Of a DNA stretch of 64,000 nt, positions 17,291 through 21,023 are shown piece after piece. This DNA is from Giardia intestinalis. Taxonomy: Eukaryota. Position 1 is the first letter of the stretch; every line of letters begins with the position of its first letter. The position numbers and the translations under genes were made by a program. The notes under the pieces were generated by a model. The model saw only the letters and a program-made list of their open reading frames with translations. It had not been told where the DNA came from and did no database searches. The DNA lies in NCBI GenBank assembly GCA_000002435.2, contig CM018789.1. The stretch is one strand, 5' to 3'.

Positions 17291-18385
17291 TTACTCGTAT
17301 AAGTGCACAGCGTGGACATTGGTGATAAATTCCTCCAAGTGCCTTCCTGTCTGCATCACAGTTTCAAGAGAAACGTCAGATGTGTTAATTGAAGGTGCCA
17401 CTGTTTCTTTTGCAAGAGAAGATACCTTTAATGTCAATCTGGCGCGATATCCGTCGAATAGTGGAGAGCCATCGGCACACTTCAGCAGCGTACACCAAGC
17501 CTGGAGCTGATGAAAGACAGGCAGATACAGATGATGGCAAGGATGTATCCGTTTAAGATCAAGAGCATTGAGGGAATGGACGTATTCATAGAAATGTGCA
17601 AGAGTGTCAGCCCACTGTGAAGAATGCTGTGCAACGGTGAGCATATGAGGGGTGATTGAAAATTCGCAAAGAAAGGACTTCCGTATCGTAAGAAGCCGAC
17701 TTGTGGTAAGGGACTGCTGCGGTAATAATGAAAGTAGCCACACGTCATACTCTTTCCCCATGCGCATAGCTCGGAGGTGCCGGCCTTTTTTCGGCCGTAG
17801 TGAGAGCATGAAAGATTGGTCTTTATTTTCTAACATACTGCTAGAGTCGTCCGAGGATTCCTCCTTCGATTCTGATAAAGCAGGGGCCACCGAAGTTTCC
17901 GATCCAGTAAGCTGTGGGGGTGCCGGCAAGGGATAGTTGGCAGTCACATGCTGGTTGGCGGAATCTGTCCCTGGAGGCGTCAGCCCCGCCTGCAGAGAAA
18001 CGGGGGTGGCGCATATAACTTTTAGAAGAGGCTCCTGATAACAGAGGTCCTCTTCCTTTTCAACTGTGTTCTCCATAGTAAAGTTTTTGGGCTCCGTTGT
18101 TAGGCACATAAGAGCATTCATAATTGCATAGAGAGGAAGACTCCCCACACACTCTCGCAAGCTCTTTTTCAGATCAATTTCGCAGGCAGCATGCGGCATA
18201 GCCTCACAGCCGTAAGGAATCGCAGATAAAGACCGAGATTGCTTCTTCATAATTTTTTCCGCCAAAGGAAGCAAGAACACATATTTATTCACTAGTTGGC
18301 GCTGTAGCCTAAGTAACGACTTATATGAAGAATGGTCTGTACTGAAGACCAAATATAGCACACGACTCAAATAAGTCATCCCCAT
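17291..18385 (-). CDS. hypothetical protein
   Basis: 364-codon ORF. ATG at 18385 overlaps the Argonaute 3' end by 65 nt. An alternative start ATG at 18250 (ggcggaaaaaattATG) would give 319 aa and clear the Argonaute poly(A) signal. No domain recognised. Confidence 0.5.
18287..18293 (-). promoter_or_regulatory. putative poly(A) signal AGTGAAT for Argonaute (minus strand)
   Basis: Reverse complement of attcact. Lies 28 nt downstream of the Argonaute TAA stop. Confidence 0.35.
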
Positions 18386-21023
18386 TTCTTAAAACCTCCC
18401 CGCAGAATTTAGAAAGGTGATGGGCCATATGTAGGACATGTGGCAAAGATATTGCTTGTGGCCAGTTGACGTACCCGTATGCCATCGCATTTGTCAGCTC
18501 AATGAGCTGATTAAATGAGTCGTTGTCTACTGAGGCCTCCATGGAGTCAAATATGATCTTGTAGCGGATTGGCTTGGGAGTTGTTCCGTGAACTATCGCC
18601 TGACTGGCCATAAGAAACTCGGATCCCTGCTGTCTATTGTCCGGGCTACGGTTAATCACATAGTACCCTGACCGTAAAACAGTACCCCCAACAGCGGAAA
18701 AACGCATAGCGCACGTTTTCTGAGCAACTATAACCTTCAGGTCACACATGGGACGGTTGGATTTGTGATATATTTGACGCAAGCACTCATATAACGACTT
18801 GATTTCTACCTCCAAGGTGGCGCTGATTTGGCTGTCTGATACCCCATCCCGGAAGATGACAATGTGGTCTGGTAAGATCCTGTTATTAAATGCAAGATAC
18901 ACATTACAAGAGTTCTTAATGAAGGCCTCCATAAGAGTTTGCTGCTGGAGCTCTCCCCCATGATTCAATCTGTTTGGCACGAGAGTCTTCTTTTGAGAGT
19001 AAATGTACTCAAAGGAGCCATCATACGTAGATATAAATCCTGCGGTTGATATGGGCACCTCTGCCGGCCTTCCTACGGTCTTCTTCGGGCGAGAGATGTC
19101 AAGTGCACACAGCATCGTAGATTTGGAGTATACATTCTGCGGGGGGAGTACGGGAGCCCACACAGCCCCGCCTGCTTTAGCATATATTTGTTGGCAGACG
19201 CTCCTGAGCACTGCTTGGTCATACCACTGCAGCTCATTTTGAGATGACTTTGGGGCCAAAAGGCACTGGGTAACAATCCCCATATGTGTATAGAATTGCT
19301 TGATACCTTTGTACAAGTCTCCACGATCCTGCTTAGGTCCTGGAATAACGATCACAACAAGTTGAATCTTGGCCACTATCTCACTCTCTCTGGCATCTTT
19401 GTACTCTAATCTAAGCTTATTGAGTAGCGCTTTGAAGGCGTCCTTATATGGTTCCACCCTGTACATCTCACGTCGCTGGTTGCTCAGCTCGACTGCTATA
19501 AGTGGCGGGTCTCCGATGTTAGGAGCCGTAGTGCCTGCCAAGGAGCGAACTCGCTCAGTAAGTTCTTTCCTAAGTCTTCGTGCATAATCATTCCCTAAGT
19601 TCCGTGGAACCATTATCGCCCAAACAGGCATGCCCGTCGCAGGCTGATTGTTATTGGAATAGTAAATCGGAGACACTCCGGGTGATTGGAGAAGATTGTG
19701 AAAGACACCCCCACTATCATCTTCAATGGTAACTATACGAGAGGTATTGTCCATCATGAGCTTGGGGGGCTTGCAGACAAATGTCTCCAGTTCCAGAGGA
19801 TTGCTGGTGAAGCCGAATCCATAATCTCCCAAAAGAGACTGCAGCTCTGTGTCTTCCGCAAGTCTCGCAGCAAACGCTGTTGCTTTTTCGAGCAATGCAT
19901 CTGGGCTCATGGTGCTCAAGGCGACAGCTGCCCTATTAGTGCTGAGCTTGGAGACACCGTAGGGGGCAATTTCATTGTCACTTATAATAATACAAAGGGA
20001 TGATGGTACATTACAAGGTCGTACAACCTTTCCGTTTTGAGTCCTCTTAAGTGGGGTGAGTTTAAGGATGAACTTGTCCTGCTGCATTACAGAGTTACAA
20101 TAATCGTTGTGTCTCAGTAAGGAAAGTCCAGCAGAGTCAATCTTATCTCTATACCTAGTTGAGTAGTAGGTAAAATAGTCTGTTTCATTGCCGTTTGCCA
20201 GTGGCGAGACAATGGTCTGCCCCTGAACTATAGAGTGGACTCTGAAAACCTTTCCGTTGTGCATAGCCATCACAGTGATGACTGCCAGTGCACTAGGGTG
20301 GATGTTTCCACGTCTCTCGGTAAGAAGCTCATTCATGGATTTGGAACGAACCTTTGTTGTTTCTGGAAGGATCTGAAGCCCAAGCTTCCCACGCAATGTC
20401 GCCGTGGTGAGCCGGAAGCCGGGGATCCAGCAGATGTCGTATCCTCTTCCATCAATCTGAATTGCGTGTATAGATGGATTCCTCAAATCGTAAAATCCTG
20501 AGCGAATATTGAGCATACCAAGAGAAGATTCAAAGGTACGTCTAAGTAAAATATTTAGTAGAATCTTCATGGACATCAAGTCCGTGGGATCCATTTGGCG
20601 AACCCGAGTAACCTTGACAGTAGCTTGAACGGGAGTAATGGGCGGTCCTGCTATGTTATTTCGCATGCCCCCTACTCGCCCACCTCTCCTCCTCGGTTTC
20701 TGGGTTGACAGAAATTCAACTGTATGTGTTATAGGCCTGGATCCCAGGTCAATCTGGGAGTAAAAGGAAGATATCGGGCAAGCGTCACTACTAGGGAAAT
20801 CTATAATCAGAGAGTAAAAAAGGCCGTGCTCCAAATTATTTCCAAGGGCCGCGTCCTGTTGCTCGCAAAACCTCTCCAAGGCCCTACAAGAATCTGCGTT
20901 GTCCAGGCTATAGCCTTGATTTGATATATGTATTGAGAGATCATACTGATATACAGGTCTAGCAGATGGTAGAACAGTATACGGATAAAAGTTAATTCGT
21001 GAGGTGACAACATCTGCTACCAT
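18321..21023 (-). CDS. AGO: Argonaute/PIWI protein
   Basis: 900 aa. PIWI domain with [13 protein letters not shown] (first catalytic Asp), [12 protein letters not shown] (RDG Asp) and [15 protein letters not shown] (His), so the DDH triad is intact. A PAZ-like region lies upstream. The 900-aa length matches the single Giardia Argonaute. Initiator tataaaaaactttgtaaATG. Confidence 0.85.

Follow-up and report, generated by a model that had tools for sequence, protein, structure and literature searches.

Giardia carries one gene copy each of Dicer, Argonaute (Ago) and RdRP (PMC5704216), and GlAgo is the sole Argonaute of this important human gut parasite. GlAgo binds small RNAs and its knockdown, according to published work, leads to a growth defect (PMC2583053); knockdown also abolishes miRNA-mediated repression (PMC2583053; PMC3196473), and libraries of the small RNAs associated with Giardia Ago are available (PMC3937270). 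As the literature has it, GlAgo binds Dicer-made small RNAs of about 26 nt, many of them snoRNA-derived, and represses the translation of mRNAs with target sites, those for variant surface proteins (VSPs) among them; normal growth of Giardia requires it, and it has been implicated, through a contested mechanism, in VSP switching.

The mode of action preferred in published work on GlAgo is repression of translation by Dicer products of 26 nt. In PMC3196473, repression takes place without mRNA loss, reporter mRNA levels being unchanged; the group that characterised the protein states, in PMC3196473 and PMC3565978, that slicer activity is absent and that fully complementary targets are uncleaved, and Saraiya et al. 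suspected that the glutamate finger was possibly missing (PMC3565978). Expression of dsRNA in Giardia cut NADH-oxidase mRNA by ~30% (PMC5704216).

The Argonaute gene, its surroundings and its domains

In the 64,000-nucleotide stretch of DNA analysed here (the window), an ATG-to-stop ORF on the minus strand (18321..21023; stop codon TAA at 18321-18323) contains an unbroken reading frame of 2,700 nt. The encoded protein of 900 aa is identical at 900/900 residues to the Argonaute of Giardia intestinalis WB C6 (XP_001707926.1; UniProt A8BCK6); the GiardiaDB identifier of the gene is, we presume, GL50803_2902. A preliminary description of the window had recognised a 900-aa PIWI protein at exactly this ORF, leaving out the strand, and had ascribed it to Giardia, as confirmed by the exact identity of Ago and of two neighbouring proteins to RefSeq proteins of Giardia intestinalis ATCC 50803 / WB C6, encoded on a contig of 1,485,438 bp; that it was called the single RNAi effector agrees with the single-copy Ago of the literature (PMC5704216). 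The feature is almost certainly the known single-copy GlAgo gene of Giardia intestinalis assemblage A (WB C6), coding for a complete four-domain Argonaute (N, PAZ, MID, PIWI) that resembles the PIWI clade more closely than the AGO clade. The gene had been annotated and studied experimentally before; the call was right, yet without novelty: the observation is correct, ordinary and previously known.

A CFAP58-type coiled-coil protein of 900 aa (21271..23973, minus strand; Pfam CFAP58_CC, E 8.1e-76), exactly the WB C6 RefSeq protein, is the same-strand flagellar neighbour of the preliminary description; a dipeptidyl peptidase (14980..17265) is also identical to its WB C6 RefSeq counterpart. No obvious functional link had been seen between the coiled-coil and Ago genes, and their adjacency is indeed missing at the single ortholog locus examined, that of P0047 (contig L001), which is not syntenic with the window. 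There, comparison of the flanking proteins with their window counterparts gave E = 63 (CFAP58) and E = 0.21 (GL50803_16581), neither being homologous, and on this locus the idea that conserved CFAP58-Ago synteny points to a functional link is rejected. An apparent overlap of 65 nt between the 3′ end of Ago and the ORF at 17291..18385 goes back to an old start call; in current RefSeq, the gene begins farther in, at the ATG 18250. Directly adjoining the ATG of Ago, the AT-rich stretch CAATATAAAAAACTTTGTAA (21024..21043, minus strand) is a putative Giardia initiator/promoter element, and AGTGAAT (18287..18293, minus strand), 27 nt past the stop codon, is a putative polyadenylation signal. The consensus of this signal in Giardia is AGTRAAY. 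According to PMC3196473, Giardia 5′ UTRs are very short (0-14 nt) and 3′ UTRs measure 10-30 nt.

All domains lie on the minus strand. The limits of the domains of human AGO2 (hAgo2), as we take them to be, were mapped through the alignment and place the N domain and linker L1 at aa ~1-228 (20340..21023), with an approximate boundary. Linker L2 follows from alignment mapping and the AlphaFold2 (AF2) model (aa ~348-461; 19641..19982), the MID domain with the pocket for the guide 5′ phosphate from the hAgo2 alignment (aa ~462-626; 19146..19640), and the PIWI (RNase H-like) domain from Pfam Piwi and PIWI-clade PDB chains (aa ~627-900; 18324..19145). Searched with HMMER, GlAgo matches Pfam Piwi (PF02171) at E 3.9e-39 and 135.1 bits (gathering cutoff, 28.9), a score well outside what chance would give, the envelope (aa 556-877) taking in the end of MID; PAZ reaches 17.6 bits (aa 244-307), under its cutoff of 28.8, and was sub-threshold in earlier literature too (PMC2583053). 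The region of P0047 homologous to the GlAgo PAZ scores above the cutoff (36.4 bits, aa 220-347), and Y286 in the GlAgo region is near-invariant across the alignment. The sub-threshold Pfam score, this ortholog match and the full-length match of the model point to a diverged PAZ domain at aa ~229-347 (19983..20339). Because PAZ stays under the Pfam threshold, the earlier wording of a complete Argonaute depends on model and orthologs and does not hold by HMMER alone.

The AF2 model, built from a 109-sequence alignment, is confident (pLDDT 85.4, pTM 0.89). A beta strand opens its fold at residue 5, and the model aligns over >900 columns with PIWI and AGO structures; it predicts the bilobed N-PAZ / MID-PIWI architecture. 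Inside the N/L1 region, an apparently disordered, Giardia-specific Arg/Gly-rich loop (aa 108-124; 20652-20702) is the only RG-rich stretch of the protein; it is absent from relatives, and pLDDT is <50 at aa 115-124. An exhaustive search of 1.84 billion protein representatives returned three matches to GlAgo at E <1e-30; the fornicate orthologs are 36% (P0047, from a Logan contig), 25% (P0048) and 25.5% (P0049, from Dysnectes brevis) identical to it. A homolog search with the MID-PIWI half gave one match, P0046, whose cluster includes a protein of the yeast Naganishia.

The active site, the MID pocket and the question of slicing

The Argonaute active site is now defined as a DEDH tetrad rather than a DDH triad. 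In an alignment of 110 sequences that includes the PDB-validated human AGO2, the motifs singled out earlier, DISRP (aa 642-646), RDG (aa 725-727) and HVLHMAHH (aa 862-869), hold D642, D726 and H868 opposite the catalytic D597, D669 and H807 of hAgo2; in the last motif, the catalytic histidine is the one following Ala (MAH), which also aligns with the AH of EfPiwi (NYAHKLA). All three residues of the triad had thus been named rightly, and the fourth, the glutamate finger, is present as well, E691 aligning with hAgo2 E637. On the minus strand, the codons of the tetrad are at 19098..19100 (D642, in LDISRP; Asp in 102/110 sequences), 18951..18953 (E691, in HGGELQQ; Glu in 93/110), 18846..18848 (D726, in IFRDGVSD; Asp in 107/110) and 18420..18422 (H868, in LHMAHHL; read directly). 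By this alignment, GlAgo carries the complete tetrad D642, E691, D726 and H868. The presence of the glutamate finger and the remaining DEDH, and their conservation in distant relatives, is a useful increment and leaves less room for the suggestion, made in print, that the tetrad is missing from GlAgo.

Among the 110 aligned Argonautes, DEDH is complete in 81 and at least one residue is lost in 29, so that the catalytic positions drift where they are not needed. The tetrad is kept in the nearest fornicate relatives (P0047, P0048 and P0049), each with Glu at the position of E691; PIWI-domain identity between them and GlAgo is 30-50%. It is kept, too, in 12/12 full-length natural variants within the species, which differ at 1-14 residues and leave tetrad and MID pocket untouched.

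The 5′-phosphate pocket of MID is intact, as judged by the alignment of Y571, K575, Q586, Q612 and K616 with hAgo2 Y529, K533, Q545, K566 and K570; Y571 is invariant and the other four are conserved in at least 90% of the sequences, and the Gln at the K566 position (Q612) is common to GlAgo and EfPiwi. A cap-binding ‘MC motif’ of Argonautes was reportedly proposed by Kiriakidou et al. in 2007. Its two Phe, F470 and F505 of hAgo2, align with L488 and K527 of GlAgo, in a gappy region and with moderate certainty; the motif is unsupported at the level of sequence, and so is the cap-binding-like MID pocket of the preliminary description, although recombinant GlAgo bound m7G-Sepharose and was eluted specifically (PMC2583053).

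As slicer activity is absent from the published work, the intact residues are not proof of slicing; the term slicer used for GlAgo stands for its residues, whereas the published statements on activity (PMC3196473, PMC3565978) are negative. Retention of the tetrad suggests that GlAgo keeps some RNA cleavage, for example for removal of the passenger strand or as conditional, cofactor-dependent slicing of targets. One tentative reading, which we put somewhat short of an even chance, makes GlAgo a latent slicer in spite of the negative statements in print; its cleavage might depend on a cofactor or on how guide and target are arranged. Animal PIWI proteins need GTSF1 for efficient slicing. Human AGO3 has DEDH, yet it is inactive on most guides, its slicing being limited by the N domain and by guide dependence; this precedent means that an intact DEDH is insufficient for slicing. 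Tolerance of a dsRNA virus by Giardia counts against the main reading; the identity of the protein has nothing speaking against it. If true, a latent slicer could serve in passenger-strand removal or in the clearance of VSP mRNAs during antigenic switching.

GlAgo may instead be an inert binder, keeping DEDH for structure or metal and acting by slicer-independent translational repression, possibly cap competition, a possibility of some weight that we consider doubtful. It accords with the reported lack of slicing, unchanged reporter mRNA and uncleaved complementary sites (PMC3196473 and PMC3565978) and with the specific elution of GlAgo from m7G-Sepharose (PMC2583053). The statement on slicing, however, is made in passages that describe no assay (PMC3196473; PMC3565978), and the fall of NADH-oxidase mRNA by ~30% under dsRNA expression (PMC5704216) argues against this reading, as do the lack of both cap-motif Phe (L488, K527) and the survival of all four catalytic residues in relatives with 30-50% PIWI identity when 29/110 Argonautes have lost at least one. 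With DEDH present, the question of why slicing has not been seen becomes directly addressable through point mutants.

Affinity to the PIWI and AGO clades

By sequence, PIWI-clade PDB chains match GlAgo at E ~1e-19, the best scoring 72-73 bits, whereas hAgo2 scores 38 bits. By structure, the best 12 Foldseek matches of the model are all PIWI-clade (12/12); the matches to MILI, HILI, Siwi, MIWI and EfPiwi are full-length (E 1e-43 to 1e-51), that to MILI having E 2.4e-51 and a TM of 0.69 when query-normalised and 0.80 when target-normalised, and target-normalised TM is 0.75-0.81 for PIWI-clade structures and ~0.70 for hAgo2. In sequence and modelled structure alike, GlAgo thus resembles the PIWI clade more than it does the AGO clade. 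A PIWI-like assignment of Giardia Ago was reportedly made by Cerutti and Casas-Mollano in 2006. Giardia is also included in the tree of PMC7845603.

It is unlikely that GlAgo belongs to the AGO clade (miRNA/siRNA-type) and that its PIWI affinity is a long-branch artefact. Its guides, Dicer products of ~26 nt with miRNA-like action (PMC2583053), speak of AGO-like biology, and its identity is low to all clades (15-19%), the PIWI affinity coming from pairwise scores; yet three independent measures, sequence bits, structural TM and the Gln of the MID pocket, favour PIWI, and an early GenBank entry was titled ‘putative PIWI protein’.

It is extremely improbable that Giardia has abandoned RNAi and that the ORF is left over from this pathway as a pseudogene, either in decay or without expression: Dicer and Argonaute are wholly missing from other diplomonads (PMC11437800) and the lineage is very divergent, with only the three matches at E <1e-30 among 1.84 billion representatives, but the unbroken 2,700-nt frame, the 12 natural variants sparing tetrad and MID pocket, the effects of knockdown on growth and miRNA-mediated repression (PMC2583053; PMC3196473) and the published Ago-associated small-RNA libraries (PMC3937270) effectively refute it.

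Comparison with known Argonautes

Human AGO2 (4ola, 9w5i) and GlAgo share the same four-domain architecture (target-normalised TM ~0.70), and D597, E637, D669, H807, Y529, K533, Q545 and K570 of the former have identical counterparts in the latter. They differ in that the PIWI domains are only 20.6% identical, K566, F470 and F505 are replaced by Gln, Leu and Lys, respectively, and AGO2 is a proven slicer whereas GlAgo is not. Human AGO3 (5vm9), also of the AGO clade, is a precedent for a full tetrad without observable slicing, as reported for GlAgo.

The best sequence and structure matches of GlAgo are animal PIWIs (MILI, 9ij0; HILI, 7yfx; Siwi, 5guh; MIWI, 9s1e; EfPiwi, 7kx7), which share with it the full DEDH, the Gln at the position of hAgo2 K566 and, according to the literature, guides of >25 nt. 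Identity to them is only 16-19%, and slicing is undemonstrated for GlAgo, in contrast to these proteins. The N-terminal Arg-Gly (sDMA) tail, Tudor-binding and typical of animal PIWIs, was sought and is not found in GlAgo, in which the N-domain strand starts at residue 5; GlAgo has the internal RG-rich loop (aa 108-124) instead. The guides of GlAgo are Dicer-dependent and snoRNA- or VSP-derived, whereas those of animal PIWIs are Dicer-independent piRNAs (PMC2583053).

The fornicate proteins P0047, P0048 and P0049 differ from GlAgo in being without the RG-rich loop and are otherwise like it, with 863-932 aa, Piwi and PAZ, DEDH and a YKQQK pocket. GlAgo itself (A8BCK6 / XP_001707926.1) and the ORF of the window are the same gene, with zero differences, and the flanking genes match the reference genome too.

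Identity and genomic setting of the Argonaute gene

The ORF at 18321..21023 (-) runs from ATG to stop in the ORF listing and encodes 900 aa; in an exact-sequence look-up its product was identical end to end to XP_001707926.1/KAE8301354.1/UniProt A8BCK6 (AGO_GIAIC), entered as 'Argonaute [Giardia intestinalis]'. The older partial entries Q86QW7 ('GlAgo') and AAO17548 ('putative PIWI protein') each match part of it exactly, and two neighbouring products, a coiled-coil protein (XP_001707925) and an alanyl dipeptidyl peptidase (Q95WU5), are also identical to RefSeq proteins of strain WB C6. 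Thus, the window belongs to the reference genome of Giardia intestinalis ATCC 50803 and the feature is the annotated Argonaute gene, in agreement with the gene and organism named in the preliminary description; GlAgo was annotated and experimentally characterised before, and no novelty attaches to it.

An AT-rich stretch (21024-21043) abuts the GlAgo ATG, and an AGTGAAT motif lies at 18287-18293, 27 nt past the stop codon; both are putative functional elements and are in keeping with UTRs as short as those of Giardia (PMC3196473). On the 3' side, the hypothetical protein GL50803_16581 (17291-18385, -; no Pfam domain) has a maximal ORF of 364 aa, which corresponds to the original annotation (XP_001707927.1) and overlaps the end of the Argonaute gene by 65 nt. 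This overlap stems from the old start call and is abolished in the current RefSeq entry (XP_001707927.2; 319 aa), which starts at an internal ATG at 18250 preceded by an A-rich stretch. Upstream, at 21271..23973 (-), lies a gene for a 900-aa protein with a CFAP58 central coiled-coil domain (Pfam, E = 8.1e-76), the same-strand flagellar neighbour that had been described. Next to it on the same strand lies a gene for a protein with LRR and CS_DNAAF11_C domains that resembles dynein axonemal assembly factor 11/LRRC6 (24146-25303, -), so that two cilium/flagellum genes adjoin at 21271-25303.

The nearest relative of GlAgo outside G. intestinalis, P0047 (36% identity; 866 aa, with PAZ and Piwi), is encoded at 7543-10143 of Logan SRR31929897 contig L001 (16,809 bp, 63-72% GC), possibly from an unsampled Giardia-related lineage. 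On this contig, the only one available for P0047, neither of the flanking proteins compared is homologous to its counterpart in the window; the CFAP58 adjacency is not conserved there, which supports the earlier view that the two genes have no obvious functional link.

Elsewhere in the window, a 264-aa protein that joins a 4Fe-4S ferredoxin domain (Fer4) to a Nitroreductase domain (12628-13422, +; Pfam, E = 6e-32) is presumably of the Giardia nitroreductase type relevant for nitro-drug activation. Three ORFs, at 37-2739 (+), 18321-21023 (-) and 21271-23973 (-), are each exactly 900 aa long (2,703 nt with stop); they are unrelated in sequence (no Pfam match, Piwi and CFAP58, respectively), and the shared length appears to be coincidental. 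Long ORFs of 2,915, 1,310, 950, 807, 718, 731 and 585 aa had no Pfam match at E <= 1e-4 (53330-62077, 28159-32091 and 47382-50234, all -; 32187-36819, +; 51022-53217, -; 43138-44895, +), as is typical of Giardia's numerous lineage-specific proteins. Sub-threshold matches were obtained for a 3,274-aa ORF (2779-12603; VPS13 N-terminal domain, 52.6 bits vs a cutoff of 80) and, weakly, for a 591-aa protein (62130-63905, -; Giardia VSP family, 22.9 bits). A 978-aa protein with many ankyrin repeats (39976-42912, -) has a degenerate kinase domain at its N terminus (25.7 bits for Pkinase, under the cutoff).

Domain architecture and clade affinity

The Pfam search suggested for GlAgo detected the Piwi domain (aa 556-877; E = 3.9e-39, 135.1 bits vs a gathering cutoff of 28.9) but left PAZ below threshold (aa 244-307; 17.6 bits vs 28.8). 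PAZ scores above the cutoff in P0047 (36.4 bits, aa 220-347) and just short of it in a second fornicate ortholog, P0048 (27.4 bits); therefore the region around aa 229-347 of GlAgo is a diverged PAZ domain rather than an absent one, in agreement with the report that domain scanners overlook it and alignments recover it (PMC2583053). GlAgo is indeed very divergent: a search of 1.84 billion cluster representatives gave no more than three matches at E < 1e-30, its own cluster, P0047 and P0048 (25% identity), followed by P0049 (E = 3e-30) from the free-living fornicate Dysnectes brevis.

AlphaFold gave a pLDDT of 32 from the single sequence, and a mean pLDDT of 85.4 (pTM 0.89) with a 109-sequence alignment, low confidence being confined to loops 115-124, 352-354, 455-461 and 786-793. 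Foldseek aligned this model over its full length with PDB entries (> 900 columns), and the predicted structure shows a complete Argonaute fold. Ranks 1-12 were all PIWI-clade proteins: MILI 9ij0 came first (E = 2.4e-51), and HILI, Siwi, MIWI and EfPiwi followed. Their target-normalised TM values were 0.75-0.81; human AGO2 (hAgo2) appeared from rank 13 (TM ~0.70). In a PDB sequence search, EfPiwi and Piwi-like 1 scored 73 and 72 bits vs 38 for hAgo2. By structure, by sequence and by the Gln in the MID pocket described below, the affinity of GlAgo is with the PIWI clade.

Catalytic tetrad, MID pocket and the slicing question

Residues were mapped in a MAFFT alignment of 110 sequences, made up of 108 full-length representatives together with GlAgo and hAgo2, the hAgo2 reference being 100% identical to PDB chain 9w5i_D across residues 1-859. 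The motifs DISRP (aa 642-646), RDG (aa 725-727) and HVLHMAHH (aa 862-869) are present, and D642, D726 and H868 share columns with hAgo2 D597, D669 and H807; the DDH triad proposed earlier is therefore correct. In addition, E691, within HGGELQQ, aligns with hAgo2 E637 and is the glutamate finger that completes the modern DEDH tetrad, which is thus present in GlAgo at the level of the alignment. Of the 110 Argonautes in the alignment, 29 have lost at least one tetrad residue. The full set is retained by 12/12 full-length within-species variants, and also by P0047, P0048 and P0049, at PIWI-domain identities to GlAgo of only 49.6%, 30.0% and 31.3%, respectively.

In the MID domain, Y571, K575, Q586, Q612 and K616 make up an intact 5'-phosphate pocket, with a Gln at the position of hAgo2 K566, as in EfPiwi and 101/110 sequences. 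The Phe pair of the MC cap-binding motif proposed for hAgo2 (F470 and F505) aligns with L488 and K527 in a gappy part of the alignment, and the cap-binding-like pocket that had been anticipated is therefore unsupported by sequence.

Recombinant GlAgo binds m7G-Sepharose and retards the 26-nt miR2 in a gel-shift assay, and growth is slower when GlAgo is knocked down (PMC2583053). Dicer, Ago and RdRP are each encoded by one genomic copy, and expressed dsRNA reduces a target mRNA by ~30% (PMC5704216). Repression of reporters by Dicer-made snoRNA fragments depends on Ago and leaves mRNA levels unchanged (PMC3196473), and VSP coding regions are targets of Ago-associated small RNAs (PMC3937270). The laboratory behind the characterisation of GlAgo states that no slicer activity was found (PMC3196473; PMC3565978), and intact catalytic residues should not be taken as a demonstration of slicing. 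Because all four residues are conserved across deep divergence, a catalytic role may have been kept, a proposition to which we give not quite even chances; it could consist of passenger-strand cleavage or of conditional, cofactor-dependent slicing. The alternative, that GlAgo is an inert binder, we consider somewhat less likely. Our analysis makes small additions to this picture: an explicit and deeply conserved glutamate finger, the PIWI-clade affinity, a proposed cap-binding Phe pair that is not conserved, and the caveat on slicing.

Distribution and the RG-rich loop

Dicer and Ago are absent from newly sequenced hexamitid diplomonads (PMC11437800); therefore Ago is lineage-retained in Giardia and some Carpediemonas-like relatives. 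GlAgo carries, as an insert in its N domain, an Arg/Gly-rich disordered loop (aa 108-124; 20652-20702, -; pLDDT < 50) that is missing from P0047, P0048, P0049 and hAgo2. The loop recalls the RG/RGG Tudor-binding motifs of PIWI proteins, although that of GlAgo is internal rather than N-terminal, and also the RG/RGG motifs of T. brucei AGO1 for polysome association.
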